From the NCBI RefSeq assembly GCF_028641065.1, contig NC_073396.1:19902001-19966000 (forward strand): a DNA stretch of 64,000 bases. The letters are read 5' to 3'. Positions 10,291-52,418 of the stretch are shown here, piece after piece. Source of the stretch: Leucoraja erinacea. Taxonomy: Eukaryota. Both the position numbers and the translations under genes were made by a program. Within the stretch, counting starts at the first letter, position 1; every line of letters begins with the position of its first letter. Below the pieces are notes generated by a model. That model made no database searches and was not told the DNA's origin. It saw only the letters and a list, made by a program, of their open reading frames with translations.

Positions 10291-12105
10291 CAGTGACAAT
10301 TGGCATTTGATGAGATCACTGAGCGACATTATGGTTGTTCTGCGTTCTTTGCATTAGTCACAAGCCAATACTGTAAGGCTTTATTCGGACAGTTTGTTAG
10401 TAAAACTACTTTTTTAATTTATTCAGCCTCGTGGGTTTTAAGACCTCAGGATATATGCTTTTGTCTGAATGTATATTCCAAATCAGCAATGATTTTTAAG
10501 TGTAGATAAATTTCCCAAGAGTTGCATTCATACAAGATTACATTTCATACATAAATTTGCTCTTATTAAATATTTTAATACATTTTCTTTAAAAACAAAT
10601 ATTTTATGAAGTAAGAGTGTTTAATTGTCATTTGTACCAACAATGGAATGATGAAATTCTTACCTGCTGCAGCTTAGCAGGCCCGTAAATGCAATACAAA
10701 CAGATGAAAATATAATAATGTAAAAAATCAATAATTTAATAGCTGTAAAATTAGGTAGCCGTAATAGTGCAAACAGCAGATTCTGTTGTGCAACTAAATT
10801 CACTGTCCATAGAACTTTATAGTTGCTGAGGTTAGAGTAATGCTGTGTTTAAGAGCTTGATGGTTGCTGGGAAGAAACTATTCTTGAATCTGGTGGTTAA
10901 GGGTATTCAGGCTGCTGTACCTTCTTCCCGATGGTAGTAACAAAATGAGAGTGAGGCCAGGGTGGTGTGGGTTTTTGAGGCAGCACTTCTTGTAGAGCCC
11001 TTCAATGTTGAGGAGATCAGTATCTGTAATGGACCAGGCAATGTCTACCGCTCTGTTAAATCACCTTCTTTGCTGGACGCTCGAGTTGCCAAACTAGACC
11101 ATGATGCCACCAGTCAGTATATTCTCTACTGTACACCTGCAGAAGTTCAATACAATATTCCTCTTCACCTGTACACCTGTAGAAATTTAGTAGAGTATTC
11201 GTCGACCTGCCAAATCTCCTCAATCTGCTAATTAGAGAAGAATGAAGAAACAAGAAACTGCAGATGCTGGTTTACAGAAAAAGACACAAAGTGTTGGCAG
11301 TATCCCGGAAAACATGGATGGGTGATATTTCTGGTTCAGTCTGAAGAAGAAAGCAGAGACATTGACGAGGTCTCTTTGAAATTGCATCAATGTGCTGGGC
11401 CCAGAAATGTAGCCAAAGTAGATATTTTAAATGAACTTTCCATCTAACCATCTCTTTTCCCTGTCACTGTATAGCAGACTTTTAAATTGCAATATGATTC
11501 CTTGAATAAGAGCAAACCAAGTTAGACTGTCTCCCACCATACAGAGATGAAAGTCAGCTCTTCGTTCTACTGCTACCTTGTTATCTTTTTCCAGTGTCAT
11601 TTTGTTCTGGTCTTTGTTTTGCTCCATATAGCCTGCTCTGTTTTCTGTATTTCTATCTCTCTTTTTCTATTGGGAATTTACTCAGTTAATATCTGGCATA
11701 ATAGATAGTATAAGAGTGAGTCATGAGCTGGAATCAGGTGGTTTATATATATTGTAGATTACTGGCCATGAATGAAAAACTGGACTCGCACTGAGGTATT
11801 TTGTTTATTCATTTTCTGGATCTCAGCATCAGCGGCAAGGCCAGCATTTACCGAACATCATCTCTACTTGTTCTTGCGATGGTAGTGCTGGGCTGCTTTC
11901 TTGAATCAATGCCGACCTTTTAAGAACATAGAACAGTACCCATCAACAAGAACGGGCCCTTCGGCCCTCAATGTCTGTGCCAACCATAGCACCAAATGAA
12001 ATAAACCCCATTTGCCTGCACAGTGAAGTTACCTTTGGTGAAGTTACACCCACAGTGATCTTGCAGAGGATTAGACTCAGTAACAAGGAAGGACCAGGGA
12101 TATAT

Positions 12106-13007
12106 GATTTAGATTAGATTAGATTAGATTAGATTCTTTATTTGTCATTCAGACCTTTTGGTCTGAACGAAATGTCGTTGCCTGCAGTCATACATATAAT
12201 AATAAACAACAAAACACACAATAAACACAAATTAACATCCACCACAGTGAGTTCACCAGGCACCTCCTCACTGTGATGGAGGCAAAATCTTAAAGTTACT
12301 GTCTCTTCCTTCCTCATTCTCCCTCTGCGCTGAGGTGATACCCCACCGGGCGATGGTAGTCAGTCCCGCGGCTCAACCGAGCTCCGCGAACGGGCCGTTT
12401 CAAACTCCGCGGCCCCGGGTGGTCGAAGCCGCCGCCCTCCAGTCCTGCAGACGCAGCTGTTGCCGCGGGAGCTCCGGAAAACAGGCACCAGCCTGTGACC
12501 TGCAAGCTCCCGACGATGTCATCCACTGGCCCGCGGCCGAGCCCCAGATTCAGGTCGCCGCTGCCTCAGCCACCGGAGCACCGTCTTAGCCCCATGCCGG
12601 GCTGCCCTCACCAGAGCGCCGTCTCAGCCCTGCGTCGTGCCGCTGCCACTGGAATGCCGGAACGCCGCCGCTGCCGCTGCAGCTCGAAGACGGCCAGCCT
12701 CGCGCTGGTGAGTCCTGGCTGGCTCTGTTTCCTTAGCCTCGAGGTCGGTCGCAGTTGGAGGCCGCCAGCTCCGCCATTAGGCCTCGGCGCAGACGGAGGC
12801 AGAGAATGGGGGAATACGACAAGAAGAGTCGCATTCCCCCGAAGGGAGAGACAGAAAACCACGTTTCAGCCCCCCTCCACCACACATAACACAGCCTAAT
12901 AACTAAAATTTGACTAAAACAAGACAGAGAAAACAACAAAAAAAAGTAAAGACATGCGGACTGCAGGCGAACCGCAGCTGTTCAACAGCGCCGCCACTTC
13001 CGGATAT
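12106..13007 (-). mobile_element. Non-autonomous GC-rich retroposon (copy A) with (TCTAA)n tail
   Basis: GGATATAT duplicated at 12098-12105 and 13008-13015; 3' stem-loop TTCAGACC-AAAA-GGTCTGAA; AATAAA then microsatellite tail. Confidence 0.8.
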
Positions 13008-13665
13008 GGATATATTTCCGTCGGAATGTTGTGCTACTCGGGGGAGTAAGTTGCAGGCAGTGGTGTTCCTGTGAAGCCATTACCTTTATTCCTGGTGGCA
13101 AAATGGCTAGTTCATGAGCTATTATGACTATTAGACAGTTGCTTCACTGGCCTTTGGACTATCTCTCTTAAATAAAGACCAGTTCCCAGTGGAACTTTGC
13201 ATGGCTGACTGGACATGTTTGGTGCCTAGGCCGATGCTAAGTGATTCTGCTGGCGCTGCATTTGAGCTTAGCAATGAACTAAGTGCTAGTGGGTACAGCT
13301 AGTGCTTCAGACGGAATTTCACAGTCAACCATATAGATAGTTCTGGAGTCACATTATAACTGACCGAGTTAAGGACAGCAAATTTCATCCCCCAAAGAAC
13401 TGTAGAGAACCAGGTGGATTTCTCAAACAATCTGATAATTACATAGTCTTCCTTTTAACAACCGTGTGGTGATATTTCCACCAACATGCTAAATTATTCA
13501 CTGGTTAAATTCCACAGCTGTTAATCCAAGTAATTGAGTCATACAGCAGGACAACTGGCCCCATGGCCCAACTCATCTGTACTGACCAAAGTGCCCATTT
13601 AGTCCCATCTGCCTGCGTTTGCTCCATACCCATCCAAACTGAAAGTCATATATTAATTGTGGCAG

Positions 13666-14556
13666 TTTATACACCGTGCCGCTACCATACACATAGGGTT
13701 TAATGTAGAATTGCAGATAGAGACTTAAAGTGGAGAATCTGTCAAAAAACACAGCACAGTATCTGGTAATCAGGACAGCAGAGGCCTGCGCCATGTACCT
13801 CCAGGGGTGCTGGGGCGATGGCTGCCCTGCCGGAAGTCTGTTCGTCTTTTCACTCTTTTTTGTTATTTTTTAGTTTTGTTTTAATGTTCTTCGGTTTGTT
13901 TTACGTGGGTGAAAGGGGAGGAGATCGGGAGAAACTTTTTTTTCAGGTTCTTACCTTCCCGGAGGTGATCAATTTTCGGATCACATTCTCCGGGCTCTGC
14001 GGCCTTCCATCGATGGAGCTGGAAGCCTCCTCGGACTGTCGTGAGCCCCACCGTGGGGCGTGGACTTAACATCGGAGCTGATCCCTTGCCTGGGATCGCT
14101 CCCACCACAGCCACCGCAGCCACTGCGGACTTTACCATCAAGAGCTTGCAGCCTCGGGTGAGGCCAAGTCAGGGGCTCCAATGCCACAGAAGGTTCGTCC
14201 AGCCCCAACGCGAGGTTCGATCGCCCGGCGCGGGGGAGCTGACATCCCCCTGATGCAGGAGCAGATCGCCTCGATGCGGAGGGCCCGAACGCCGCCGGCT
14301 ACGGGAGTCAAGATCGTCCCGTCAACGGGGGCTCGAGGCCCACGACCGAGGAAGAACTAAGGGAAGGACTTGAACTTTATTTCACCTTCCTTCACAGTGA
14401 GGAATGTGTAGGAGTCACTGTGGTTTATGTTCATGTTAAAATGTGTTTTTGAAGTGATCTGTTACTTTTAATTGTATGACTGACCTGGCCAATGAAATTC
14501 CTCGTATGTTGCAAAACATACTTGCCGAATAAAGTGTGATTCTGAATCTGATTCTG
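13666..14556 (+). mobile_element. Non-autonomous GC-rich retroposon (copy B) with TCTGA-type tail
   Basis: TTGTGGCAG duplicated at 13657-13665 and 14557-14565; same architecture as copy A. Confidence 0.75.
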
Positions 14557-15177
14557 TTGTGGCAGCTCAGTGCAAAACTAACCGTGGTTAGTGACCTCAC
14601 CTTCCACATCGCCTTCCACCGTGTCCCACTTGGATAGGAAAGTAACATCAGCCAGGGGTTTCTGTATTGTCAGGCAGTGGACATAGTTTATTGGGAATTA
14701 GTTGACAATTATCTATCAATCTATCTATATATTACTAAAACTCTTATCTTGTTTGTTTCTATCTATCTATATATCTATCTATGCGCGCGTATCCACGTGA
14801 TCCAGGAACTACTGCAAAACAGTACATGATAACGTAAGATTTTTGCACCGCTTTACTCACTGTGGTGGTTTGTGTCAAGTTTAGTTAAGATTTATATTAT
14901 ATTTCATGTTATTAACATTTTTAGATTTACAAAATCCCAACTTGAGAAAAATTTCTTCCCTGTAGCTATGATGTCACAATGGGATTGTAGCCCTGCTCAC
15001 AACATCTTTGCTGTCCAAGTACACTGAGTCCTGCTAGCCCTAGCAAGTCCAAATGCATTTTTTAAAAGTCACAGTACACTGAGTTCTGCTGGCTGGCAAA
15101 TGCAATTGCATTTTTTTTTAAGTTTAAAAATGAGGGAGGGTGAATAAGACAAAATAAGCAGCCCCTGCACAGGTGGG

Positions 15178-15350
15178 GTCTATGGGTGAGTGGTGGAATA
15201 TTGTGTTGGGGGAACGGGTTGCGTTGGGGAAACGGGTTAGTGGTGGAATATTGCCTTGGGGAACGGGTTGTTTGAGGGACCAGGTCTCCCGTGGGGGCTA
15301 TGGGTGAGTGGTGTAATATTGCGTTGGGGGAACGTGTTGCATTGGGGGAC
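15178..15350 (+). repeat. Subterminal tandem repeat (about 60-bp period) in the Helitron unit
   Basis: gggtgagtggtggaatattg(t/c)gttgggggaacg occurs three times, with one more copy at 16840-16870. Confidence 0.8.
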
Positions 15351-15390
15351 TAGGCCTCTCGTGTAACAGGGACCCAACAAGTCCCACTTG

Positions 15391-16226
15391 ATTTCAAGAG
15401 TTCAAGAGAGTTCAGGAGGCATTTATTGTCACTTGCACCAATTGGCACAGTGAGATGTGAATTACCATACAGCCGTACGAATAAAAAGAACACAATACAG
15501 ATTCAGATTCAACTTTAATTGTCATTGTCAGTGTACAGTACAGAGACAACAAAGTGCAGTTAGCATCTCCCTGGAAGAGCGACATAGAATATGATTTCAA
15601 TAAATAAATCTACACGATAGAATCCAACGTGAACATCCCCACAACAGAATCAACGTTTCCCACTGTGAGGGAAGGCAAGTTCAGTCCTCTTCTTCTTTGT
15701 TCACCCGTGGTCGGGACCTTCAGGCCCTCTCACCGGGATGATCGGAGTTCCGGCTTCTGAACGGAGAACACTCTCAGCAGCTTAAGTCCACAGGCCGAGC
15801 TGGACGGAGCTCCAACACTGGCGATCCCCGGCGAGAGGTCCTAGGATGTTAAGTCAGAGCCGCTCGCGGCTGGAAGCTCCGCAGACCACAGCTCCACGGG
15901 GTTAGACAGCAGTCCCAGCGCTCCGGAGATCCGGCAATACACAGTAAGGCATCATCGTCCCGCTCCACGATGGAATCCAGTGCTGCGCCGCTGCTGAAGC
16001 TCTGGCTGGTCTCCAGACAGTTGGTAGGGAGGGGAGGCGAAGACGCGGCTCGGAGAATAGACGCATCCTCGACCATGTAGTGACTGAGAAAACAGTTTCC
16101 CCCAACCCCCACATAAAAAACCCTCCAGAAACATACTTTTAGAGACTAAAAATAACAAAAAGGGTGAAAGGACAGACAGCTGCTGGTGAGGCTGCCGCAT
16201 GCAGCGCCACCCGATGACGTACGACG
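15391..16226 (-). mobile_element. Non-autonomous GC-rich retroposon (copy C) inserted in the Helitron 3' terminus; itself contains a Rex1 3'-tail insertion (15500-15610)
   Basis: Splits cccacttg|gtctagt. 15500-15610 matches the 3' end of the 44.9-46.2 kb Rex1 copy and is flanked by TACA. Confidence 0.75.
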
Positions 16227-16264
16227 GTCTAGTGTATTTTATTAAAACTTTCATCTTGTCTGTC

Positions 16265-16266
<2 letters not shown>

Positions 16267-16344
<78 letters not shown>
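16267..16344. repeat. (TG)n microsatellite, about 39 units
   Basis: Directly visible. Confidence 0.98.
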
Positions 16345-16349
<5 letters not shown>

Positions 16350-16519
16350 CTGCCTACCTGTGTGTGCATGTGATCCAGGAGTGGAACCGGGGGCAAGGAT
16401 GGGGTTGGAGCCCGCGCGGAGAGAGAGAAGATCAGCACCCCCCCCCCCCCCACCCCCCTCCCGTCGCCGACATGGTGGAGAAAAACAGTGCCGGCAGTGG
16501 TTTACATCAAAATCCTGGG

Positions 16520-16772
16520 GAGGTAAGGTGGGAGACTGGGAGGATTGAGGGAGAAGAGGGGGTAGGGAGGGGAATGTGGGGGAGGTGAGGAGGGAGAGTG
16601 GGGGGGTGGGATAGGAGGGAGGTGTGAAGTGGGGAGGAATGAGATAGCAGGAGAGGAGGGGTTTTGGAGGGAGTGAGTGAGGGTAGGGGAAAGGCAGAGG
16701 AGGGAGAGGTGAGGGAAGGAGTGGGGGAGGGGAGGAGGAGAGGGGAGAAAAGAGGGAGGGTGAAGAGGAGGA
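16520..16772 (+). repeat. G/A-rich purine tract (G-quadruplex / H-DNA potential)
   Basis: About 250 nt of almost only G and A with many GGG runs. Confidence 0.8.
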
Positions 16773-19210
16773 GCGTCACAATGGGGATTTCTGACATCAC
16801 AACAGGAACCCGTCAGCCACGCCTGCGCAGTTGGGGGCTATGAGTGAGTGGTGGAATATTGCGTTTGGAGACCAGCCCTCCCTTGTGACAGGGACCCAAC
16901 GGGTCCCACTTGGTCTAGTATAAAATTAAAAGTCTTATCTTGTATGTATGTATGTTCCTGAAATACAGCCAAAACGGTACACGATAGCGCAACAATTTTA
17001 GGGGTGCCTTACTCACATTCGCCTGCGGTGTGCAGTAGCAAGTTTTGTTCGTTTTATCAAAGTAATTCCCTTTATGAACTCTTTAATTAACTTTCTACCC
17101 ACTGGGCCTTGTGCAGTGCTCTCCTGGCCTGTTAGCCACACCTGCACAGCGGTATCCGTGCGTGCGCAGTTGAGGGAGGGTTGCCGGGCCCACCGACATA
17201 CTCAGATCGCCATTTTGACTGGCATCACAACAGGGATCTCTGGTCTCACAGTGGGTCCACGGGTAGTCTCTATAAACTTTAATTAACTTAATTAACAGAT
17301 GACCCAGCCATCTTCCCATTTCTGTCAGTAAGAACCATCTGTGAGGAAATTGGTAATCACATTTTCTAAATTAACCCCACTTCAAAAGTATCTAATTTCA
17401 GTAAAGAACTCTCTGAAAGGAATGTTAAAAGAACTATAAGAATGCAAAGAGAGCAAGACTCAAGGAACTGCAGACACTAGAATGTTGGCAAAACACCCAG
17501 TGCTGGAGAAGCTCAGTGGGTCAAGCAGCATCTGTGATGGGAATGGATGCTGTGTCTTGTGGTAATGCTTTGCTCTGGAACCCTACTTCAGGTCACTCAA
17601 TGTGAACACAAAGCTTCCTTCTGTGAGTCAACCTCAGGGAAAAAATTGAGAAGAAAATGTCACTGTTTTGCAATGCACCTCCCTGATTTTCAAGGCAAAA
17701 CCTGCATGTCAGTTTATTTTGCTAATTAGAGCAATCTTGGATGTTCTGTTATTTGAATGGCATTGGTGGGCATGCGTGTCAGTGCAAACTTCCCTCTCTC
17801 CTCTGACACCTCTTCTCCTGCCTGAGCTGCAAACTGCAGTGATTGGGGGTGGAGTGTAGGAGTGGGGGTGAAATTGACAAGAGCTGGGAGTCGTGCTTCG
17901 GCCCCCACTGTACCGATGGCAGACATCCACGGATTAAACATCACCAGCTTGAGTATTTGCTAATGTACAGGGAAAGGGTTGACTCCCCCTCGACAAGCAG
18001 CACCTGCCACTGCTGTTAAAACAGCAGATGTATTTGCCGAGGGCAGAGCTGGAGGGGATTAGCACCACGTAAATAGCAGTGGATGCCGTTATTCATCGTA
18101 CCCATGACACAGGATTGCTTCTCCTCTCTGGCATCGCAGGACCAATCATTAGCTGCCACAAGCAAGAGAAAAGACCCATGTGACCTGCTGCTGGCATCCT
18201 CCCTCCCACCCCCACTAATCCCCTCAGCAGACAGGCCAGCAAAAAGACACCATCATTCCTTTTATTTCCTTTGCTTTTCTGTACATTACCCACCCACCAA
18301 ACCCATCTAACATTAAGCTGTGCCACAGATATACCTTGATGTTTAAATTATCTCAATCCTCCACATCCCCAAGTTCTTCAGACCTCCGATATCCTCACAT
18401 TTCTCAGCCGCAGACTCATGCCATCCAGAATTTAATCACCTTGCCAGCTTTCATTTGCAAAGGCCTTGAGTTTTGCACTTTCTTCCCTAAACCTCACCAC
18501 CTGTCATCTGTGATACAGATTCAAAACCTTCCCGTACCATTTACATAAATTCCGTTTATGAATTTTCACTATAACATTATTGATATTTTAGGTGCATGTA
18601 GTGGAAAATAGATTTACAAATAGCATGCCACTGCCTGCTAACTGGAAATGTCATCCGTAATACATTTTGCTCAGTCACTTTAATTTAAATCAAATTCTTT
18701 GTGTCCTTTTTACATCTCAAGTAATAGCTGTTCCGCAATTTGTCAAATTCAATAAAAGCATCATTGGATGTTTTGCCGCAGTAATGCACTATATTAAGGT
18801 ACTGTCATGCAGGTTTCGGGTCTGTAGATGGGTCCCGACCCGAAACCTCACCTATCCATGTTCTCTAGAGATGTTGCCTGACCCACGGAGTTATTCCAGT
18901 ACTTTGTGTCCTTTTGGGTAAACCGGCATCGGCAGTTCCTTGTTTCTCCACCTTTTATATTTACTGTATAAAGTCTAAATGTTATCGTTGCCTTTAATTT
19001 GACAGTTCTATTTGCAATTTCTCTATTCCATTTAATGGAGGAATTCACTGGGTTTAATCTAGAACAAATGATATCTGGAAACAAGTTGAGTAGTGGGATC
19101 TATCCAAAATAAAACAAGTAATATTAGAAATAAAGATCTCACACGCATTTAGATTCACACTCGTGTAATCAGACACAAAAATATCATTAAAATAAAAACA
19201 AAGTACAAAT

Positions 19211-19216
19211 TTTATT
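19211..19216 (-). terminator. Candidate TFAP4 polyadenylation signal AATAAA
   Basis: AATAAA on the minus strand about 530 nt past the stop, followed by a U/GU-rich tract (ttgtactttgtttttattttaatg...tttttgtgtctg). Confidence 0.55.
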
Positions 19217-19744
19217 TCTCTCTTTGCATGGCAGGTGCCTTTTTTTCCACTTTCTTTAACAAAATATAATAGTTTTTCCATGAACACAAACCTCGTCTCA
19301 ACTTATAACTCAAATACAGATACAGGAAGAGATGGGAGGAACTAACAAAACAAACTACATGAAAGGACACTGCTTAAAAAAAAGAACTACATCAGTACAA
19401 TAAAGGGGGGTGATTACTGAAGTGGTTGCAGTCACACCGAGGACATCCCCTCAGTGGACTGAACAAATTGGTAAGTGCTTGAAATTCCACCCCCCTCCCC
19501 CAGAACAAAAGGTTGCTAAAATGTCCTTCAGCAACTCTTCAGCTATGGATTCCAAGGTAGTCATGAGAAAGGATGTTGAGATCCCCTCTGGTATGGTCCA
19601 GATTTCAATAGCCAATCACTCCCGGCTATTACTGTTTACAGTATTGGGAAAGTCCAAAAGATACTCCAACTGTTTAATTCCTTTTTCTGAGAATAACACA
19701 GGGAATGCCACCTGGATCGATCCCAGTGTGGTGCAGCTCCAGTG

Positions 19745-19921
19745 TCACGGGAGCACCCTCTCCACGGGCCCCTTCTCCTTGCCCAGCTTTCCATTTTCTG
19801 TTGCCTCATTCTCCTCCCTATCTGACTCAGTATCAGACCAAGCTCGGCTGGGCTGGACAATCACTACTCGTCGCTGCTCCTCTTCTGGCCTTTCCTGAGT
19901 TCCCTCAATGTGCTGGATCGC
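19745..19921 (-). CDS. TFAP4: TFAP4 exon 7, coding part to stop
   Basis: Acceptor ggcAG; AIQHIEGTQERPEEEQRRVVIVQPSRAWSDTESDREENEATENGKLGKEKGPVERVLP then TGA at 19747-19745. This frame is not in the ORF track. Confidence 0.93.
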   Translation of the reverse strand, partial: AIQHIEGTQERPEEEQRRVVIVQPSRAWSDTESDREENEATENGKLGKEKGPVERVLP

Positions 19922-22900
19922 CTGCCATTTTAAAGAAACCCATCATTAGTCAAATGAAGAAAGAAATCCTACAACAGTCCATGGTGGTGGTAATTTACTT
20001 GCAAGATCTCAGGCTGATCCAAGTCCTACTTTGGGTGCTTTTTCTCCCTTGGCCGGCGACAGCAACAAACAGGTAGATTGTCTCTGCAGAGACATGGGTG
20101 AAGGGCAGGAAGGGCCAACAACACAATGTAGCATAGTGTAGAATCTTGAGGCACATCAGGGGTAATGTTTAAAGGTTTCAAGGTCAGTTTATTGTCACAT
20201 GTACCAATTATGGTGCAGTGAAATTTGAGTTACAGAGAAGATGGCAATGCAGTGCCAATTAAGGTCGGCATCACATGATGTACCGGAACACTTCAAATAA
20301 AGCTATATGGATACACGTTCGGAACAAAAAGTAGATGACTTTGTTGAGGATACACTTCAGGCCTGGCGTGTCCCCATTAGTGTGAAAGGCAAGGACAATA
20401 AGTTCCAGGAACCTATGACAAAGTTCCTGACAAGTATAGGGAGTTGAAAATTGGGAAGCCCTTCAGGATTACAGAAATGGGGGATACTCAAAGACATTAT
20501 GAAATACTACTTTTGTTTTCTGTCCTCTAATCAATCCTATGTTCATTCAAAATAATATCCCCAACCATGGAGCCATTTTTTAGTAATAATCTTGTGTGCG
20601 ATAGTTTAACACACCCCTTTTGAAAATGAAGATAAACATTTGCTGATCCCAAAAGTCAGTCTGTCCGTTCTTTTTGTTATATTAAGTATGTGTTAAAAGT
20701 GTGTTTTAGTGTTCCTTGGTTTGTTTTATGTGGGGGTTGGTTGGGGGGGGGGGGGGGGGGGGGGGGGGGGATTGGGGGAAACTTTTTTTCAATCTCTTAC
20801 CACTACAGAGATGCAATCCGTATCGTATCTCCGTCCCCACTGCGGCCTAACATTGTGGAGTTGGCGGCCTTTCCTGGAGACCAACCCGGTGCTCCAAGCC
20901 ACAGGACTTTAACATTGCGGAGCTTGCGTTCCCATTGCTGGGGATCGAAGTTTCAACGCGGGGCCCGTGGACTTTAACATTGTGAAGCCCGCGGTCTCTG
21001 GAAAGAGGAGGCCGAATCGGGAGCTCCATGCCGCGGAGAGAGTTTCAACCGTCCCGACACGGGAGTTTCGATCACCCCGACGGGGGCTTCGGTCGTCGGT
21101 TGCAGGGGCTTTGATCGCCCCGACGGCGGATGGTTTGACTGCCCCGACCGTGGAAGAAGAAGACCAAGAATATTGAACTTTATTACCTTCCATCACAGTG
21201 AGGAATGCGGAATCCACTGTGATGGATGTTTATGTTAACTTTTATGTGGTTGTGGGTCTTGTTGCTTTTCACTTAGTATGGCTGTATGGGTAACTTAAAT
21301 TTCACTGTACCTTAATTAACAATAAACTTGATCTACCCACATGCTGATCAAACACTATTTCCTTTCATATCAGCAGAAAAACTATTGAATCATTTTCTAA
21401 ATGTCCTGTTACCATATCCTTAATAATAGATGCCAGTACATCCTCTAAAATGTTTAGCAAAAGTTCCTTATTCTCCCTGTCCCAGCTAATAGCTGCAATT
21501 TTCTCAACAGCCTTATTAGATCTGCATCCTCCCTATCTGCTAGATCCACTCCATGCACAAGTGGACTGTGGAAGATCAGCACTAATAACTCTGCTAATTT
21601 TGCATTTGTTTCTTCAAGAAACCTAGAATATAGACCAGCATGTCCAACGGACCTGTCAGTTTTTAACCCCCTTAACCCCCCTTCAATGTTGGTAGATCCT
21701 TGGTGTCCCAGCATTTCCAGCACAGTCCCTACATTTTCTACGACATGGCAAGTACTGATATTTTTTCAAATAACTTGATCAAAATCTATCCTCCCCATTT
21801 TTAATTCTCCTGCCTCTGAACACTCACAATTATTTCTATTTGCAAAGTTACAGAATCTTATTTTATATTTCTTGCTAGTTAACTCTAATATTCTGCCTTT
21901 CTCCTCTACAATCAATTTGGGGTCACCTGTTGCTGAGCCCTGTAACTGGTAGTGCTTTCCTTCCCCCTGGTCAGTCACGGGAGCAGGGCAGCAGCCTCAC
22001 CTGCACAATGGTGTCGAGGTTCTGTCTTGACGTAGTGGAGGAGCTGTTGATGACTGAGGAAGGTCCCATCGTCACCACAGTGACTTGGTGCGAAGGCAGC
22101 GGAGGTGGAGTCTGCACTATAACAGTGGGGTGGTGGGTTGGTGCTGGGATGATGTGTGCCGGCAGCAGCTGAAAGACAATGAGGGGAAAAGTAGTTTGCA
22201 AAACGTTAACTGAGAGTTGCTCACTCAACTTTAGCAGAGGCACAAAACAGAATGTAGAATTGTCCCTTGTGTGTAGGATAGTGCTAGCATATGGGGATCG
22301 CTGGTCAGTGTGGACTCCGTGGGCTGAAGGGCCCGTTTCCATGCTACATCTCTAAATTAAACAGCACATGAAACATAGAAAATAGGTGCAGGAGTAGGCC
22401 ATTCGACCCTTCGAGACTGCACCGCCATTCAATATGATCATGGCTGATCATCCAACTCAGTATCCTGTACATGCCTTCTCTCCATACCCCCTGATCCCTT
22501 TAGCCACAAGGGCCACATCTAACTCCCTCTTAAATAGCCAATGAACTGGCCTAAACTACCTTCTGTGGCAGAGAGTTCCAGAGATTCACCACTCTCTGTG
22601 TGAAAAATGTTTTTCTCAGGCCTTTTAGCCCACAATATCCATGCTGAACATGATTCCAAGGTAAACTAATCGTATCTGCCTACATGTGATCCATATCCCT
22701 TCATTTCCTGCATATCAATGTGCCTATCTAAAAGCCTCTTAAATGCCACTTAAATTATTGAAGCCCATTCTTAGGCAGTGAAGACCAATCTGAGCATATA
22801 CTGTAGCTCTCTAATGCAGCCACCATCCTGTTTGTTAATGAATTAATACTGCTGTTTGCTCAGTTAGATTCTGTACTGGAGACAGAAGGAGCTGCGGATG

Positions 22901-33400: not shown

Positions 33401-36400
33401 CTTTGATCATATTAGCCCTACGAGATGTTTGTAGGCTGTGATCTGTATTTTTATTTATTCAGTCTCCAACAATGGTGTTGCCATTGGCAAACCTGAAGAG
33501 TCCGAACTGCATCTGGCTACACTTCGTGAGTACAGATTGGGTAGAGTGTAGGAGGAACACCACAACACAGCCTTGAGGTGCTCCTGAATAATTTATATTT
33601 ATTCAGTGTCTTTGACAGTGATAGAATGTGATGCTGGTCCCAGATGAGGTGTTAACATCTCAGACAACCCGTCCTGGACCCAGCATGTTGATAGAAATTT
33701 GAAGAAGGCACGTCATCTCTAATCTCCTACATTTTTAAAGATATTCGGTATGTCACTGAATAGTCTAACAAACTAATACAGTTTGAAATGATCCTGACAG
33801 GTTTCATCATGGCCTCATACAGAAATTACAAGGTAGACAAAAGTGTCTCAGCGGGTGCAGCATCATCTATGGAGTGAAGGAAATAGGCAACGTTTCGGGC
33901 AGAAACCCTTCTTCAGACTGATGTAGGGTGGGGGGGGGGAGGGGTGGCGTGGAGAAGAAAGGAGAAAGAAAGAGGAGGAGCCAGAGGGCTGAGGGAGAGC
34001 TGAGAAGGGGAGGAGACAGCAAGGGCTACCGGAAATTGGAGGTCAATGTTCATACCGCTAGGGTGCAGACTGCCCAAGCGGAATATGAGGTGCTGCTCCT
34101 CCAATTTCCGGTGGTGCTCACTCTGGCCATGGAGGAGGCCCAGGACAGAGAGGTCGGATTCAGAATGGGAGGGAAGTTGAAGTGCTGAGCCACAGGGAGA
34201 TCAGGTTGGTTAATGCAGACCGAGCGGAGGTGTTCGGTGAAACGATCGCCAAGCCAATGATTGCTTGGGTCCTTGAATGAGTTGAGGGGGGAGGTAAAGC
34301 GACAAGTGTAGCATCTCTTGCGGTTGCAAGGGAAAGTGCCCGGGGAGGGGGTGGTGTGGGGAGGGAAGGGAAGAATTGACCAGGGAGTTAAGGAGGGAGC
34401 GGTCTTTGCGGAAAGCAGATAATTAGCATATGTAGAAAGCAGACAAGGGACGAGATGGGAAGATATGGCCAGTGGTGAGATCACGTTGGAGGTGGCGAAA
34501 AAGATGGAGGACTATTTGTTGTATGTGGCGGCTAGTGGGGTGAAAGGTGAGGACTGGGGGGACTCTGCCCTTGTTGTGAGTGGGGGGATGGGGAGAGAGA
34601 GCTACGGGGTATTGAACAGACCCTAGTGAGAGCCTCATCTATAGTAGGGGAAGAGAACCCCCGTACCCTGAAGAATGAGGACATTTCCGATGCCCTGGTG
34701 TGGAACAGCTCATCCTGGGAGCAGATGCAGCGTAGACGGAGGAATTGGGAGTAGGGGGATGGAGTCCTTACAGGAAGCAGGGTGGGAAGAAGTGTAGTCT
34801 AGATAGCCATGGGAGTCAGTAGGTTTATAGTGGATGTCGTCAGAAGTCTATTACCTGCGATGAAGATAGTGAGGTCAAGAAATGGTAGGGAATTGTCAGA
34901 AATGGTCCAGGTGTATTTGAGTGCCGGGTGGAAGTTAGTGGTGAAGCGGATGAAGTCAGAGAGTTGTGTGTGGGTACAGGAGGTAGTACCAATGCAATCG
35001 TCGATATAGCGGAGGTAGAGGTCGGGGATGGGGCCCGGGTACGTCTCGAACAAGGATTGTTCGACGTACCCTACAAAGAGGCAGGCATAGCTGGGACCCA
35101 TGCGTGTGCCCATAGCTACGCCTTGTATTTGGAGGAAATGGGAGGAGTCATAACGAAAAGTTATTAAGGGTAAGGACCTTTAATTACAACAGAGGCTATA
35201 GAGAACGGCACATGATGGATTGGGCTGAGCACAGGTCAACCCAATCTATCATCCATTGGGTTGATACAGCTGTCCCCTCCTTCTAAAGCATTTACACAAG
35301 GTGCAAGAAAGTGGCATCTATCATCAATGATCTCCACTATCCGGGTATGCCCTCTTCTCACCACTACCACCAGTTAGGAGGTACAGAAATCTGAAGGTTC
35401 AGGAACAGCTACTTTCCTAGAACTGTCAGGTTCTGGAACTGACCTGCACAACCCTAATCTTACCTCGACAATTGAACACTACAGATCACCTCTTGTACTA
35501 TCGTGGATCAATTTTTTTTAAATTGTATTTTCCACTGATGTCTTGTTTTTGCAGTCTTTTTCTTTTCACTGTCCTGTAGAATTTAACGTGCATTTTATGT
35601 TTTGTGTTGTTTAAGTCTATGTGCTTGTGATGCTGCAACAAGCAAGATTTTCATTGTACCTGTACCTCACCATACTTGTGCTTCCGACAATAAACTCGAC
35701 CTGAACTTTAGACACAAAAAGCTGGAGTAACTCAGCAGGACAGGCAGCATCCCTGGAGAGAAGGAATGGGTGACGTTTCGGGTCGGGACCCTCTCTTCGA
35801 CCTGAACTTGACTTGACGTGTTATTAGTCACCCGGCAAGTGAGAATACAGACAGTACAGGAACAGGCCCTTCGGCCCACAATGTCTGTGCTGAACATGAT
35901 GTCCAAGTTAAACTAATCTCCTCTGCCTGCACTTGACCCATATCCCCTCCATATCCCTATCTAAACGCCACTAATGTATCTGCCTCAACTACCATCCCTG
36001 GCATGTTGCAGGCACCTACCACCCTCTTTGTAAAAAAATTATCCAGCACGTCTTCTTTAAACTATCCCCCACTCACCTGAAAGCTACCCTCTAGTCATTG
36101 ACATTTTCACCCTGAGGAATGGTTCTGACCCTGATCCCTCTGAATTTCACTCAATTGCTTCCCATTGACAGCTGTATCACAGTCAAACAGCCCGTACTAC
36201 CCACCTTGTCACAGTATCAGATGCTGTCTTCCTCCCTTTGGACAGCTCAATTGTAATCATATGTAGTCTTTCAGCTGACTGGGTAGCACATGCCAAAAAA
36301 AGCTTTTCACAGTACCTCAGTACACGTGATTATAAACTAAACTAACTTCTCAAAGCTGGCTCAGTGGCACAGCTAGAAGACCCGCTGCCTCACAGCACCA

Positions 36401-37579
36401 GATTAAATCGTGAGTTTGGGTGCTATCTGTGGAGTTTGCCCGTTCTCTGTGGGTTTCCCCCCCCCCCCACATGCCAACAACGTGCCTGATTCGAGGTTAA
36501 TTGGCCCTCTGTAAATTGCCCCTACTGTGTATGGAGTGGATGAGAAAGGTAGAATGCCATAGAGCTAGTGTAAATGGGTGATCAATGGTTGGTGTAAATT
36601 CGATGGGCTGAAGGGAGTGTGCCGTATCTATCAATCAAACATCTCGAAGATAGACACAAAAAAGCTGGAGTGACAGCGGGGCAGGCAGCATCTCTGAAGA
36701 GAAGGAATGGGTGAGGTTTCGGGTCGAGACCCTTCTTAAATATCTCACCTAGGATATTTAAGGTATTGAATGGGAGGAAGAGAGGAGGCTGAGTGTTTCA
36801 GTGGCAGCACCTGCCGCTGTGACTGGGTGGGAGTAGTTTGTCCTGAATGCTGGGGAATCCTGTCCTGTCCGGAGCCCGCAAAGGGAAGCTTCACTCCCAG
36901 AGTTCCTCGGGGCGCCTCTAGAACTACAACTCCCGGCTTGCCTGCGTCCAGCGCCGCAGAGAGCCAGGCAGGCCCGAGGCGCCACTCGGCCTCATCTTCC
37001 GCCCGACCCGGGCTTTCTGAGCGGCGGGGTAACCCACACCTCACGCCGCCTCCACAGAGTCACTTTGGACACTTTCTTCTCCCGCCCCCGCTGCTGGGCT
37101 TTTAAACCCGGTCTGACCGCCTGCAAACTCTCCTCCCCCCACACACCCACTCCCCGGACAGTGATCAGACCCACGTGCGCCCCGGGGTGAGGGGGATACA
37201 CCGTGCACGCCCCCGGTCCCGGGCCCCGTGCGCGCCCCCGGTGCCCCCCACGTGGCCCTGTGGTGGAAGGTCCGGCCGCAGCCGCCCGTTGCCCTGGAGC
37301 CGCCGCCGCCGCCGCGCGCGTCCACGTGCGCGCCCGCAAGCCCCGCCGCTGCCGCTGCCGCCCCCGGGTCCTCCCGCCGCCCCCATCCCTCTCCTCCTCC
37401 ACCAGCGCGGAAAACGGAGCAGTGCTCACAGCAAAAAAAAACCCGATACATTAAAAAATAACACACAGAGGGAGATAGAAAAGTACACACCTACAGAGAC
37501 CTCCTATCACTTCTTTCTCACTCTTCCTGAATTCCTGGAATGAAGATACCTTCTGAGTGGGCACCACGAAATATTCCAT
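19745..37579 (-). CDS. TFAP4: TFAP4 (transcription factor AP-4, bHLH-leucine zipper), spliced CDS join(37579-37491, 27809-27644, 27060-26962, 25918-25748, 23845-23702, 22168-22001, 19921-19745), 1014 nt, 337 aa
   Basis: Seven exons joined by GT-AG introns give one open frame MEYFVVPTQKV...RIRREIANSNERRRMQSINAGFQSLKTLIPHTDGEKLSKAAILQQTAEYIFSLEQEK...SRQNLDTIVQAIQHIEGTQE...VERVLP*, recognisably vertebrate AP-4. Confidence 0.97.
20655..21332 (+). mobile_element. Non-autonomous GC-rich retroposon (copy D) in TFAP4 intron 6
   Basis: T-rich tract, poly-G, GC-rich core, CCATCACAGTG hairpin and AATAAA tail, as in copies A-C. Confidence 0.7.
22001..22168 (-). CDS. TFAP4: TFAP4 exon 6 (Pro-rich, TIV motif)
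   Basis: Acceptor tttcAG, donor CAG|GTGAGG; 168 nt; LLPAHIIPAPTHHPTVIV...SRQNLDTIVQ. Confidence 0.95.
23702..23845 (-). CDS. TFAP4: TFAP4 exon 5 (Q-rich)
   Basis: Acceptor tcagcAG, donor CAG|GTCAGC; 144 nt; VRSLEAHGYPEKLKAIAQHVQLQQQ...HMTQ. Confidence 0.94.
24378..24408. repeat. Poly-G run (also 20743-20770)
   Basis: Directly visible. Confidence 0.9.
25295..25617 (+). mobile_element. tRNA-derived SINE (HE1/V-SINE type), full length
   Basis: A box TGGCGCAGCGG, B box GGTTCGATCCC, V-domain-like ggtttcctcccacac, CR1-type tail gggccgaagggc and (TAAAC)n end. Confidence 0.85.
25748..25918 (-). CDS. TFAP4: TFAP4 exon 4 (basic PKRRR patch, DEGIGS degron-like motif, zipper 2)
   Basis: Acceptor acAG, donor CAG|GTTGGT; 171 nt; EYSGSSPKRRRAEDKDEGIGSPDVWEDEKLEDLKREMIELRQQLDKERSVRMMLEEQ. 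Confidence 0.96.
26051..26080 (-). ncRNA. Minimal hammerhead-like core in a Penelope-derived short repeat (TFAP4 intron 3, sense orientation)
   Basis: CUGAAGA-A-AGGU(UCCG)ACCU-GAAA-CGUC. Confidence 0.5.
26962..27060 (-). CDS. TFAP4: TFAP4 exon 3 (helix 2 and leucine zipper 1)
   Basis: Acceptor ttccacacAG, donor CAG|GTGAGC; 99 nt; AAILQQTAEYIFSLEQEKTRLLQQNSQLKRFIQ. Confidence 0.97.
27644..27809 (-). CDS. TFAP4: TFAP4 exon 2 (basic region, helix 1 and loop)
   Basis: Acceptor tcttcttgcAG, donor AAG|GTCAGG; 166 nt; LANIPLSQESQRDQERRIRREIANSNERRRMQSINAGFQSLKTLIPHTDGEKLSK. Confidence 0.97.
28760..28993. mobile_element. hAT/Charlie-like DNA transposon end (left boundary uncertain)
   Basis: Terminus GTTGGGAACCACTG (reverse complement CAGTGGTTCCCAAC) followed by GTCTAGTC, a Charlie-like target; partner terminal repeat not found. 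Confidence 0.5.
32760..33368 (+). mobile_element. Degraded Rex1/Babar 3' fragment
   Basis: ctacttcctcagaag...tgcaccatggaaagcatcct...acatgtgacaataataaacc, similar to the other Rex1 copies; similar pieces at about 10.6-11.2, 24.0-25.3, 29.7-30.1, 55.6-55.9 and 61.8-62.2 kb. Confidence 0.65.
33830..35180 (-). mobile_element. Penelope-like retroelement, 5'-truncated and frameshifted (RT plus GIY-YIG-side remnants) with 3' hammerhead-type repeat
   Basis: MGTRMGPSYACLFVG, YLRYIDD, LPFLD, PCNRKRCYTC, RFTEHLRS...VAQHFN, EEQHLIFRLGSLHPSGMNID; 3' end carries CTGAAGA...GAAACGTT. Confidence 0.9.
33887..33916 (-). ncRNA. Minimal type I hammerhead-ribozyme-like core at the Penelope 3' end
   Basis: CUGAAGA-A-GGGU(UUCU)GCCC-GAAA-CGUU; stem II present, palindromic AACGUU stem III, very short stem I. 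Confidence 0.6.
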
Positions 37580-38849: not shown

Positions 38850-41160
38850 GGGAGAGACATAGAAAGAGACTCTGCATTGATTACTCTCAAACTATAAACC
38901 AGTTCACGGAGCTTGATGCATATCCATTACCTCGTATGGAGGAGATTACATCCATATCAATACATTTGCTAAGTATAAGATATTCTCTACTTTTGACTTT
39001 AAAAGTGCTTACTACCAAATTCCTTTGAAAGAATCAAAGAAGAAATCCACTGCGTTTGAAGCAAATGGGAAATTATACCACTACTGCAGAGTTCCTTTTG
39101 CTGTAACTAATGGTGTGGCTGTTTTTCAGAGAGAGACGGACGAACTTGTTGAACAGGAAAACCTTAAAGATATTTTCCCTTATGTTGATAATATAACTAT
39201 TGCAGTAAAAGACCAAGCTGAACATGATGAAAATGTACAACGGTTTTTAGATGTTGTACATTCTAAAAACAAACATTAAATGAGGCTGTCAATAACATCA
39301 GTGTCATCAATTAATATTCTTGGTTATTGGGTTGGAAATGATATAATAAAGCCTGATCCAGAAAGACTCCAGCCACTCAAAGAGATACCTGTTCCAGCTA
39401 CATTAAACTCTCTACGAAGAGTTCTTGGGATGTTTGCATATTATGCTAAATGGATACCAAATTTTTCTGACAAAATTCAACCTTTGATTAGAGAAAAATC
39501 TTTCCCCCTTGACTCTACAGTAATTGGTGCCTTTACTTCTTTAAAGAAACAATTAGAATCTGCGACATTACACGCCATCGATGAGGATCTCCCCTTTGTT
39601 GTTGAATGTGATGCAGTATCAGCAACATTAAATCAAGGAGGACGACCAGTGGCTTTCATGTCTCGTACTCTCCAAGGTAATGAATTGCACTACCCACCCG
39701 TCGAAAAGGAAGCTGCAGCAATTATTGAAGCAGTGAGAAAATGGAGTCATTTCCTTGCTCGCCAACACTTTTCACTTTGATAACAGATCAGCGTTCAGTA
39801 ACTTTTATGCTGGATAATCGGAAATGAACGAAGATTAAAAATAGTAAAATTCATGAATGGAGGATTGATTTATCTGCATATAGTTATTCAATTGAGTACC
39901 GCCCTGGTAAGGATAATGTTGCTCCGGGTACATTAACTCGAGCATTTTGTGCCTCTGTTCATTCTTCTGCACTCACTGATCTTCACAATGGGCTGTGTCA
40001 TCCTGGAGTCACTCGTTTGTTACACTATGTTCGCTCCAAAAACGTACCTTTCGCTACAGAAGATGTGAAGATGACGTGTGCTTCATGTAGAATCTGTGCT
40101 GAATTAAAACCAAGGTTCTTCCATCCTGAAGAAGGAAGATTGATCAAAGGTACTCAACCTATGGAACGTTTGAGTATTGACTTCAAAGGGCCTTTACCAT
40201 CCTCCTCTCAAAATGTTTATATACTTACTATAGTTGATGAATATTTGAGGTTTCCATTTGCCTTTCCTTGTCCAAATATGTCAGCTGCTAAGGTTATCAA
40301 ATGTTTAGATCAACTGTTTTCATTCTGTGGATTTCCAAGTTACATACATTCTGATAGGGGCACCTCATTCATGTCAAAAGATTTAAAAGACTACCTTTGT
40401 AATAGAAGAATTGCAATAAGTAAAACAACACCATATCATCCTATTGGAAATGGTCAGGTTGAGAGGTATAACGGAATCATTTGGAAAGCAGTGAAACTGG
40501 CTTTAAAGTTAAATGACATACCAGATCAGCAGTGGGAATGTGTTCTACCCGATGCATTACACTCCATCAGATCTCTACTGTCAACTGCTACCAATACTCC
40601 TCCACACAAGCGGTTCTTTAACTTCAAACGGTGTTCTTCTAGTGGTACTTCTCTGCCATCATGGTTGACTAGCCCTGGGCCTGTGTTGCTTCATCGGTAT
40701 GTCCGATCAAATAAGAATGAGCCTTTTGTTGATGAAGTTGAACTGACTGATGTCAACCCTTCTTATGCAACTATCAAGTATCAAGACGTCAGTCAACGGT
40801 CTCACTTTGTGACCTTGCACCATGTCCGTCTTCTCCATCAGCTCCGTCACTTCTTGATAACATTAATCGAGAACTTCCTCCATATGGAAACTTCTATAAG
40901 AAATTCGAAAATTGTAAATGTAAATAACAATATGAGTGAAGTTGATGACCAAGCAATGCATGTACCACCAGCTATTGAAACACCATTATCTCCTGAAGCT
41001 CCAGTGCTGCGACGGTCATCAAGACGTACTAAACCTCCTTACCGTCTCAACTTATAAATAGGAGGGGAGAATGAAGTGGGCGCATGTGCGGGGCTTTTCC
41101 AGAGTGTGCACATGTGCGGGGTATTTCGGGCAGGAAATACCTCGCACGGTATCTGCCTCC
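38850..41160 (+). mobile_element. Decayed Ty3/Gypsy LTR retrotransposon: pol remnant (RT, RNase H, integrase), polypurine tract and start of the 3' LTR
   Basis: RLCIDYSQTINQFTELDAYPLP, RVPFAVTNG, YVDN, LNQGGRPVAFMSRTL...EKEAAAI, HHCC zinc finger, IDFKG/HSDRG/GQVER DDE triad; frameshifts and stops; PPT aggaggggagaa (41060-41071) followed by TG at 41072. No gag or 5' LTR seen. Confidence 0.93.
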
Positions 41161-43740: not shown

Positions 43741-43759
43741 CTACTGTCTTTCTCCTCGA

Positions 43760-46700
43760 TAAATAAAGTTTTTCCTCATCTCCGTTCTAAATGGCCTACC
43801 CCTAATTCTTAAACTGTGGCCCCTGGTTCTGGATTCCCTCAATATTGGGAACATGTTTCCTGCCTCTAGCAAGTCCAATCCCTTAATAATCTTAAATGTT
43901 TCAATAAGAACCCCTCTCATCCTTCTAAATTCCAGAGTATACAAGCCCAGCCTCTCCATTCTATCAACATATGACAGTCCCGCCATCCCGGGAATTAACC
44001 TTGTGAACCTGCGCTGCACTCCCTCAATAGCAAGAATGTCCTTCCTCAAATTTGGAGAACAAAACTGCACACAATACTTCAGGTGTGGTCTCACTAGGGC
44101 CCTGTACAACTGCAGAAGGACCTCTTTGCTCGTATACTCAACTCCTCTTGTTATGGAGACCAACATGCCATTAACTTTCTTCACTCCCTGCTGTACCTGC
44201 ATACTTACTTTCAGTGACTGATGAACAAGGACCCCCAGATCCCGTTGTACTTCCCCTTTTCCCAACTTGACACCATTCAGATAACAATCTGCCTTCCTGT
44301 TTTTGCCACCAAAGTGGATAACCTCACAGTTATCCACATTAAACTGCATCTGTCCACTCACCCAACCTGTCCAAGTCACCCTGCATCCTCATAGCATCCT
44401 CCTCACACTGTCACTTCACACTGCCACCCAGCTTTGTGTCATCCGCAAATTTGCTAATGTTACTTTTAATCCCTTCATCTAAATCATTAATGTATATTGT
44501 GAATAGCTGCGGTCCCAGCACCGAGCCCTGCGGTACCCCACTAGTCACTGCCTGCCATTCTGAAAGGGATCCGTTAATCCCTACTCTTTGTTTCCTGTCT
44601 GTCAACCAATTTTCTATCCATGTCAGTGCCCTACCCCCACTACCATGTGCTCTAATTTTGCACATTAATCTCCTATGTGGGACCTGTGCAAATGCTTTCT
44701 GAAAGTCCAGGTACACTACATCTACTGGCTCTTCCTTGTCCATTTTCCTCATTAATCCTCAAAAAATTCCAGAAGATTAGTGAAGCATGATTTCCCCTTC
44801 GTAAATCCATGCTGACTCGGACCGATCCTGTTACTGCTATCCAAATGTGCTGCTATTTCTTCTTTTATAATTGACTCTAGCATCTTCCCCACCACCGATA
44901 TCAGGCTAACTGGACCATAATCAGGATCCCTATCAGTTCGCCTACCGCAAGAACAGGAGTACGGAGGATGCCATCTCAACGGCACTTCACTCCGCCCTCT
45001 CCCACCTCGACAACAGAGACACTTACGTAAGAATGCTGTTCATCAATTACAGCTCAGCATTCAACACCATTATACCCTCTAAACTGATCACCAAACTTGG
45101 TAACCTGGGCATCGACCCCTCCCTCTGCAACTGGATACTGGACTTTCTAACCAACAGACCCCAGTCTGTTAGGTTAGACAAGCACACCTCTTCAACCCTC
45201 ACCCTGAACACCGTTGTTCCACATGGTTGTGTGCTGAGCCCCCTCCTCTACTCCCTCTTCACCTACGACTGCACACCTGTATATGGTACTAACACCATCA
45301 TCAAGTATGCAGATGATACAACGGTGATTGGCCTCATCAGCAACAACGATGAGTTGGCCTATAGGGAGGAGATCCAGCTCCTAGCAGCATGATGCGCTGA
45401 CAACAACCTGGCCCTTAACTCCAAGAAGACCAAGGAGCTCATTGTAGACTTCAGGAAGTCTAGGGGCAGCACGCACACCCCCATCCACATCAACAGGACG
45501 GAGGTGGAATGTGTTTCCAGCTTCAGGTTCCTGGGGGTCAACATCTCCGATGACCTCTCTTGGACCCACAATACCTCAACTCTGGTCAAGAAGGCTCACC
45601 AGCGTCTCTTCTTCCTGAGGAGACTGAAGAAGGTCCATCTGTCTCCTCAGATTCTGGTGAACTTCTACCGCTGCACCATCGAGAGCATCCTTACCAACTG
45701 TATCATAGTATGGTATGGCGACTGCTTTGTCTCCGACCGGAAAGCACTGCAGAGGGTGGTGAAAATTGCCCAACGCATCACCGGTTCCTCGCTCCCCTCC
45801 ATTGAGTCTGTCCAAAGCAAGCGTTGTCTGCGAAGGGTGCTCAGCATCGCCAAGGACTGCTCTCACCCCAACCATGGACTGTTTACCCTCCTACCATCCG
45901 GGAGGCGCTACAGGTCTCTCCATTGCCGGACCAGCAGGTCCAGGAACAGCTTCTTCCCTGAAGCTGTCACACTACTCAACAATGTACCTCGGTGACTGCC
46001 AATCACCCCCCCCCCGACATTCCTCCCACAGGAAAAACACTATGACTGTATGCATGTAAATAGATTTATTTATTGAAATCATATTCTATGTCACTCTTCC
46101 AGGGAGATGCTAACTGCATTTCGTTGTCTCTGTACTGTACACTGACAATGACAATTAAAGTTGAATATAAATCTGAATCTGATAATTCCGTTTTCTCTCT
46201 CCCGCCTTTTCTTAAAAAGTGGGATAGCATTAGCTACCCTCCAATCCACAGGAACTGATCCTGAATCTATAGAACATTGGAAAATGATCACCAATGCGTC
46301 CGCGATTTCCAGAGCCACTTCCCTAAGCACCCTGGGATACAGACCATCACGCACTGGGGATTTATCAGCCTTCAGTCCCATCAGTCTACCCAACACCATT
46401 TCCTGCCTAATGTGAATTTCCTTCAGTTCCTCCATCATCCTAGGTCCTCTGGCCACTAGTACATCTGCAAGATTGTTTGTGTCTTCCTTCATGAAGACGG
46501 ATCCAAAGTACCTGTTCAACTCCTCTGCCATTTCCTTGTTCCCAATAATAAATTCACCTGTTTCTGTCTTCAAGAGACCCACATTTGGCTTAACTAATTT
46601 TTTCCTCTTCACATACATAAGAAGTTTTTACTCTCCTCCTTTATATTCTTGGCTAGTTTGCCTTCGTACCTCATCTTTTCTCCCCGTATTGCCTTTTTAG

Positions 46701-52399: not shown

Positions 52400-52418
52400 C
52401 TGAACTTCTTCCTGAAGA

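Follow-up and report, generated by a model that had tools for sequence, protein, structure and literature searches.

A high-copy, non-coding composite retroposon family of skates, probably mobilised in trans by Rex1 LINEs

Bipartite non-autonomous long interspersed nuclear elements (LINEs) that lack any open reading frame (ORF) are reported only for RTE, Ingi, Vingi, and R2 in a 2018 survey (Kojima 2018, PMC5786205). Here, we describe a family represented by four elements (E1 to E4) in 64,000 nt of Leucoraja erinacea DNA (contig NC_073396.1, positions 19,902,001 to 19,966,000; hereafter the window, in whose coordinates all positions are given). Each copy was divided into a head, a CpG-rich core, a module, and a tail. 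We conclude, with a probability of roughly two in three, that the elements form a high-copy, ORF-less composite retroposon family of skates, of the type transcribed by RNA polymerase II (Pol II) and mobilised in trans by Rex1 LINEs. The family itself is real, abundant, and recently mobile.

In the same survey, RIME/Ingi, Vingi-N, RTESINE, Bov-A, and R2 derivatives likewise have no ORF, a LINE-like 5′ end, and a LINE 3′ end, and they are likewise presumed to be transcribed by Pol II and mobilised in trans (PMC5786205). The skate family differs in that its partner is Rex1 rather than RTE, Ingi, Vingi, or R2, and in that its middle is foreign, making it a composite and not a plain internal deletion. 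Its copies have no coding frame and a partner-derived 3′ end (for E2 by layout only), but they do not consist solely of LINE 5′ and 3′ parts: the core and module, about 450 to 630 nt per copy, had no match in a set of 80 LINE loci, four of which are near-full-length Rex1 elements of other hosts. Rex1/Babar LINEs, as described in PMC6274825, resemble the family in having a conserved 3′ untranslated region (UTR) with an oligonucleotide repeat after it, copies that are often 5′-truncated, and a similar 5′ layout; the skate family differs by lacking the endonuclease–reverse transcriptase (RT) ORF and by its foreign CpG-rich core and module. Chondrichthyan short interspersed nuclear elements (SINEs) such as HE1, SacSINE1, and CmiSINE/SINE2-1_CM are likewise non-autonomous, with LINE-derived tails and tail exchange between families (PMC3747384, PMC5499810), but they have tRNA heads and HER1, CR1, or L2 partners, and the skate family has neither, a distinction drawn from descriptions and not from consensus alignment. 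Pairing of Rex1 with an ORF-less composite retroposon appears to have been little described so far. We found no description of the family in the literature searched, which leaves out most subscription papers and Repbase Reports, and an entry in Repbase or Dfam may exist; our guess is that automated annotation places the family under "Rex-Babar" or "unknown."

The copies, their parts, and related pieces are as follows, where organism F is one of three organisms (A, D, and F) whose DNA runs were compared with the window.

12107..13003, minus strand: E1, full-length copy of 897 nt, delimited by an empty orthologous site in organism F and by pairwise alignments.
12102..12106, with right copy 13004-13008: 5-bp target duplication of E1, left copy, deduced from the coordinates of the empty-site contig.
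12863..13003, minus strand: E1 head (GC-rich leader, U-rich tract, G patch), resembling a Rex1 5′ end; rank 1 of 986 window segments.
12238..12280, minus strand: E1 module hairpin of 14 bp; its acceptor-like AG ends at 12271 and is weaker than in E2 to E4.
12107..12172, minus strand: E1 tail, with stem-loop 12143-12172, AAUAAA 12137-12142, and a 5-nt microsatellite (Tandem Repeats Finder); rank 1 of 146 AAUAAA-type sites.
13795..14556, plus strand: E2, full-length copy, delimited by alignment and DNA depth.
14392-14423, plus strand: E2 hairpin, with acceptor-like AG ending at 14397; AAUAAA of E2 at 14528-14533.
13657..13794, plus strand: single-copy DNA upstream of E2, opening with a 9-mer repeated at 14557-14565; candidate 5′ extension within a putative duplication.
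15391..16226, minus strand: E3, full-length copy inserted into the 3′ end of another repeat without a target duplication.
15637-15670, minus strand: E3 hairpin, with acceptor-like AG ending at 15663; true tail at 15391-15456.
15495..15612, minus strand: nested 5′-truncated Rex1 3′ end in the 3′ part of E3, 95% identical to 46061-46178.
20655..21332, plus strand: E4, leader-less copy whose core has internal repeats of ~63 nt and 21 nt.
21189-21226, plus strand: E4 hairpin, with acceptor-like AG ending at 21198; the E4 tail has a partly deleted stem and AAUAAA at 21321-21326.
20178..20225, minus strand: orphan fragment of an E3/E4-type tail, its stem-loop intact (tail profile E 1.3e-6).
44910..46183, plus strand: 5′-truncated Rex1 LINE (RT region and 3′ UTR; Pfam RVT_1), representing a candidate partner lineage and the type from which the nested piece would come.

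Pairwise local alignments of each part, compared with 100 dinucleotide shuffles, bear out the original prediction, made from the letters of the window alone, that four homologous elements lie on these strands. All six module pairs (z 4.7–21) and five of six head pairs (z 6.3–9.9) beat every shuffle, while the E1–E4 head pair (z 3.4) scored below some shuffles. Among the cores, E2–E4 (z 27.7), E1–E4 (z 8.4), and E2–E3 (z 5.6) aligned best, and the remaining three pairs were weak (z 2.4–3.8). Because column identity in the four-copy alignment averages 54%, we regard E1 to E4 as distant subfamilies. The copies are 678 to 897 nt long and, as had been proposed, CpG-rich (observed/expected 0.77–0.91 vs 0.41 across the window). 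Repeated 14-mers exceeded the shuffle maximum in E4 (11 vs 6) and E1 (14 vs 13) and did not in E2 (6 vs 7) or E3 (2 vs 6). A hidden Markov model (HMM) built from the four copies detected no further full copy in the window and matched nothing in the 80 LINE loci. When E1 to E4 were compared with autonomous Rex1 elements, alignment was confined to the tail ends and was not collinear with the RT ORF or the 3′ UTR; had they proved to be simple collinear truncations of the UTR of a known autonomous LINE, the original prediction would, on its own terms, have fallen.

To assess abundance, 11700-16262 (E1 to E3) was compared at 80% likeness with three DNA runs (organisms A, D, and F) and one RNA run. 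The summed DNA contig depth of E1 to E3, which is not a copy number, was ~10^4 times that of the flanks in all three organisms, at 0.6 to 1.15 million over the E1 module compared to 21 to 101 in the unique bins 13077-13535. In run X1, E1 depth was 1.15 million at 12159-12311 and 0.16 million at 12771-12923, with flanks at 21 to 44. Depth therefore peaks at the 3′ module, and it drops to single copy beyond the E1 5′ end. Such 3′ skew is expected from 5′ truncation or from stronger 3′ conservation, and many copies are probably 5′-truncated. The skew, the LINE-type tails, and the 5′ truncation of E4 are also what we would expect if the elements derived, by plain 5′ truncation, from an unsampled autonomous LINE whose 3′ UTR is very long. 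We consider this quite improbable for the following reasons: E1, E2, and E3 share homologous 5′ start positions and a head like a LINE 5′ end, the depth beyond the E1 5′ end is single-copy, the 3′ UTRs of the RT-linked copies in the window and of the Rex1 references L001 and L004 contain neither core nor module, and an E4 frame has just one longer protein relative, a host gene model without RT (82% identical over 62 residues, in Leucoraja erinacea).

Mobility is most directly seen at E1. In organism F (run X13), one contig joins 11700-12099 to 13004-13396 with two letters between them, which is the empty site of E1, and the flanks otherwise differ by 19 letters in ~790; in organisms A and D, flank contigs continue into E1. 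E1 therefore moved recently, probably with the 5-bp duplication 12102-12106/13004-13008, assuming that the unplaced letters are 12100-12101. E1-type heads were rarer, and E2-type heads commoner, in organism F than in A and D. These data revise in part the element limits first proposed (12106-13007 for E1 and a start at 13666 for E2), and two clear duplications at the coordinates then given are not supported: that of E1 is probably 5 bp and not an overlapping 8-mer, and the 9-mer of E2 lies 130 nt upstream of the homologous start near 13795. Only one contig, at flank depth, covers 13666-13794 in each DNA run. The 9-mer starts at 13657 and again at 14557 (with a different first base in organisms D and F), and the pair could be a duplication around a 5′ extension of E2; neither a source copy of the upstream 130 nt nor an empty site was seen in the three DNA runs. 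E4 has an offset 8-mer as a candidate duplication. E3 has no target duplication at its ends, and the repeat 3′ end that it interrupts is found intact at about 16890-16920. The stretches 14720-15390 and 16227-16930 are related non-coding repeats of high depth, both with a GC-rich hairpin and a CTAG-type 3′ end, and E3 sits within the end of the former; the CTAG-type ends are presumably Helitron-like.

The tails point to the partner. Three tail types are present among the four copies, and not a different tail in each as originally proposed: the true tail of E3 and the tail of E4 are one type (z 10), and the apparent inner tail of E3 is the 118-nt nested Rex1 3′ end, with other copies skipping 15499-15640/15647 at joints in the sequencing runs. 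We scanned the 146 AAUAAA-type sites of the window for a closing stem-loop that is anchored and reaches −5 kcal/mol or lower; 12 passed, with E1 ranked first, the RT-linked tail at 46153 third, E3 fourth, and the orphan fragment sixth. As Rex1 references, we used four near-full-length elements from metagenome contigs (L001, L003, L004, and L006), which are not from skate; the nearest named proteins of L001 are from teleosts. The tails of L001 and L004 have the same anchored stem-loop form. A profile of eight RT-linked tails matched the E3 tail (E 0.005) and, weakly, the E4 tail (E 0.26). A covariance model of Rex1 tails contained no base pairs. Judged by structure and profile, Rex1-type tails appear well supported for E1, E3, and E4, and E2 is assigned by layout only.

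Several LINE fragments in the window have RT C-termini that match a profile of the partner ORFs. In two long fragments, and in L001 and L003, the peptides of published Rex1 primers (PMC4635592) occur at ~550-nt spacing, and the partner is therefore assigned to Rex1; the primers themselves have at least 6 mismatches to the LINE DNA, so that the likeness lies only in the peptides and their spacing. The copy at 44910-46183 is 85% identical in DNA to full-length L001 over 1057 nt. It is inserted among CR1-like LINE fragments (42214-46627, minus strand). Elsewhere, a 257-nt inverted repeat (52085-52726, 95% complementary) is the 3′ part of a Rex1 copy (52340-53546, minus strand) duplicated in inverted orientation.

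The heads extend the likeness to the 5′ end. All four Rex1 references open with a GC-rich leader followed by a U-rich tract, as E1 to E3 do. In 32 pairwise head tests, three (E1–L001, E2–L003, and E3–L006) gave 0 of 500 shuffles as good, and when 986 window segments were ranked by their match to the four Rex1 5′ ends, the heads of E1, E2, E3, and E4 placed 1, 3, 15, and 87. The E1 head scores 48 to 53 against the Rex1 heads, which score 43.5 to 56.5 among themselves with one pair at 91, and it remained significant with block shuffles that keep local composition (p 0.002–0.008). A Rex1 origin of the element head is thus likely. Genome and viral contigs yielded no relative when searched for further Rex1 5′ regions. 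The Rex1 ORFs (L001:111-270; P0001-P0018) have a hydrophobic, signal-peptide-like start followed by a conserved Y-x-R-x-x-L-L, and the U-rich tract of E1 to E4 stands at a place matching this hydrophobic start.

No copy encodes a sense ORF of at least 120 codons, and the copies thus lack the intact ORF1 of non-autonomous LINEs such as HAL1 and Ag-Sponge. A 179-codon antisense frame of E1 has no Pfam match and, among 1.84 billion representatives, one relative, which is an ORF called, without a name, in another copy whose core differs; protein searches with the element frames returned only exonised or ORF-called copies. Two Leucoraja erinacea gene models, P0140 (an antisense E4-like piece) and P0054 (Rex1 RT sequence), reflect exonisation or annotation artefact. 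SINEBase defines SINEs as shorter than 1 kb, with at least 100 copies, a head sharing 60% or more identity with tRNA, 5S, or 7SL RNA, and Pol III (RNA polymerase III) transcription (PMC3531059). The elements could be read as a Pol III SINE with an unrecognised head, given their 0.68 to 0.90 kb (678–897 nt), high copy number (E1 to E3 depth ~10^4 times the flanks), and LINE-type tails, and a Rex1-paired non-autonomous element, SINE2-5_NV with Rex1-24_NV, is listed for Nematostella in PMC3747384; that element, however, is a tRNA-headed Pol III SINE in a cnidarian. ARAGORN found no tRNA in E1 to E4. Rfam gave no match at the gathering score and only chance-level hits at E ≤ 10, with no 5S, 7SL, or ribozyme, and no A box and B box arrangement was present. 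Each copy has two to six runs of at least four T in its first 150 nt, which would stop Pol III and therefore argue against transcription by it. These results largely refute the Pol III SINE, which we regard as highly improbable. The absence of a tRNA head and an RT ORF had been claimed from the start, as had a non-autonomous family with Rex1-type tails; depth, T-runs, and tail structure and profile now support a non-Pol III family of that kind.

Evidence on transcription came from about 6% of one polyadenylated RNA run of organism D, whose library orientation had no control. Reads in E1 to E3 were biased to one strand by about 2- to 18-fold depending on the bin (for example 3041 vs 178, 1508 vs 97, and 88 vs 11), the sense strand if the library is of the usual type. 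The bias is suggestive, but orientation is uncontrolled and one read-through locus contributes many reads; Pol II transcription from an internal promoter, and with it the original suggestion of a possibly Pol II-driven family, is inferred.

Several results weigh against a Rex1-derived head, a Rex1 tail in every copy, and an internal promoter. With block shuffles, the heads of E2 (p 0.01–0.6) and E3 (p 0.14–0.5) are explained by composition, and only E1 goes beyond it, so that the proposed match of heads to LINE 5′ ends holds for one copy. An HMM of the four Rex1 heads and a protein profile of Rex1 N-termini had no match at the element heads, and the Rex1 heads compared come from other hosts and not from skate. 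The stem-loop filter is insensitive: it recovers one of the window's RT-linked training tails and misses the others as well as E2 and E4. The profile of eight RT-linked tails misses E1 and E2. In the RNA, depth at the module is ~3- to 3.5-fold below that at the head in E1 (855 vs 3041) and E2 (504 vs 1508), a difference that full-length transcripts of the elements would not by themselves produce. No sharp RNA starts were seen in the organism D run, 752 reads continue into one upstream flank, and 88% of placed reads extend into dissimilar sequence. The bias could also come from antisense capture of the A-rich strand.

The module was examined both as a hairpin and as a splice acceptor. The four stems are in the sequences as originally written, but the claim that the module folds in all four copies stands only for E1 (z −2.95) and E4 (z −2.84); E2 (z −0.45) and E3 (z −0.14) fold no better than shuffles, and the E2 stem is missing from the minimum free energy structure of 76 nt and has 8 bp in a 131-nt context. 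Nor do we find support for a family that keeps a structural element: one of 13 pairs changed on both sides, a covariation score reached by 233 of 500 shuffles, although four sequences give this check little power. The exact hairpin pattern occurred in 0 stretches of viral, metagenome, and genome contigs. One of the 13 paired columns varies in the left arm and eight vary in the right arm, so the constraint as read from the alignment would lie mostly on the left arm, and a selected RNA structure is unsupported. The left half looks like a 3′ splice site, with a branch-like hexamer, a pyrimidine tract, CAG, and then UGA. The AG sites of E2, E3, and E4 satisfy criteria of branch-like, pyrimidine-tract, YAG, and AG-free type, as do 44 of the 8679 AG sites in the window overall; these criteria were chosen post hoc, after the sequence had been seen, and the E1 site fails them. 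We treat the left arm as a predicted splice-acceptor-like sequence and as a lead. Two other candidates were rejected. One was splicing within the element, from donor-like sites onto the acceptor, for which there was no matching joint among the 15 of 727 listed; the other was a V(D)J signal, which the inverted heptamers resemble, as no nonamer was seen by eye at 12 or 23 nt in E1.

SVA and LAVA of apes are composite non-coding Pol II retroposons whose CpG-rich core is internally repeated and which contain splice-acceptor-like sites; they differ from the skate family in their L1 partner, poly(A) tail, and Alu- and endogenous retrovirus-derived parts, and no homology is implied. By analogy, the skate elements might have no real promoter and act as terminal-exon traps: host Pol II transcripts would enter the element or splice onto its acceptor, stop at the UGA, and end at the AAUAAA, Rex1 would copy the RNA, and the hairpin would tune acceptor use. 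The rarity of qualifying AG sites, the constancy of the left arm, the read-through locus in RNA, the candidate 130-nt 5′ extension of E2, and an E4-like copy exonised in antisense in a Leucoraja erinacea gene model all fit such a trap. We nevertheless judge it unlikely, since the criteria are post hoc and exclude E1, no joint or loose end fell at the acceptor among those listed (15 of 727 joints and 24 of 7526 loose ends), three copies have homologous 5′ starts, and no second copy of the 130 nt upstream of E2 was seen in the DNA runs.

We therefore favor the composite retroposon mobilised by Rex1. Its head would probably descend from a Rex1 5′ end; its CpG-rich core, which matches none of the sampled LINEs, would grow and shrink by internal duplication; its module would be a conserved splice-acceptor-like sequence with the AG within the hairpin; and its 3′ end would be of Rex1 type. 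RNA polymerase II would transcribe a full-length copy from the head or enter from upstream. The Rex1 endonuclease–RT would then recognise the terminal stem-loop and prime at the microsatellite tail, a step we propose because the stringent-tail principle is known for other LINE clades. Insertion at a new site with a short duplication would follow, as at E1, and subfamilies may have changed or re-tuned their tails to follow different Rex1 lineages. A bolder version, which we think doubtful, is that the elements are an undescribed, recently active Pol II retroposon superfamily of skates and the first ORF-less Rex1 derivatives, with a Rex1 promoter head, tails swapped between Rex1 lineages, and tens of thousands of copies serving as regulated terminal-exon traps (hairpin-masked acceptor, stop codon, and polyadenylation signal), an independent SVA-like invention in cartilaginous fish.

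The window as a whole consists of vertebrate DNA rich in repeats. One of these, a common short interspersed repeat 70 to 100 nt long, is spread over 750-63965, with at least 16 to 20 copies on the plus strand and 10 to 13 on the minus strand. A Gypsy-like pol region (38917-41057, plus strand) is spread over several frames, in which RT, RNase H, and integrase motifs can be picked out by eye, and translated fragments at 34050-35179 resemble a Penelope-type RT and GIY-YIG endonuclease. Two CpG-island-like stretches (36900-37550 and 58400-59000; GC 0.57–0.61) are possibly host gene promoters.

If the proposed partnership is true, Rex1 joins the four LINE clades reported in 2018 to yield ORF-less Pol II passengers, and its case bears on a question from that survey, whether the short list of clades reflects sampling or biology (Kojima 2018). 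The divergent tail stem-loops would offer natural variants for mapping recognition by the Rex1 RT, and the presence or absence of copies among close skate relatives could provide phylogenetic markers. Skate genomes may owe a large, young fraction of their DNA to the family, which may also supply them with CpG-rich sequence and splice signals.

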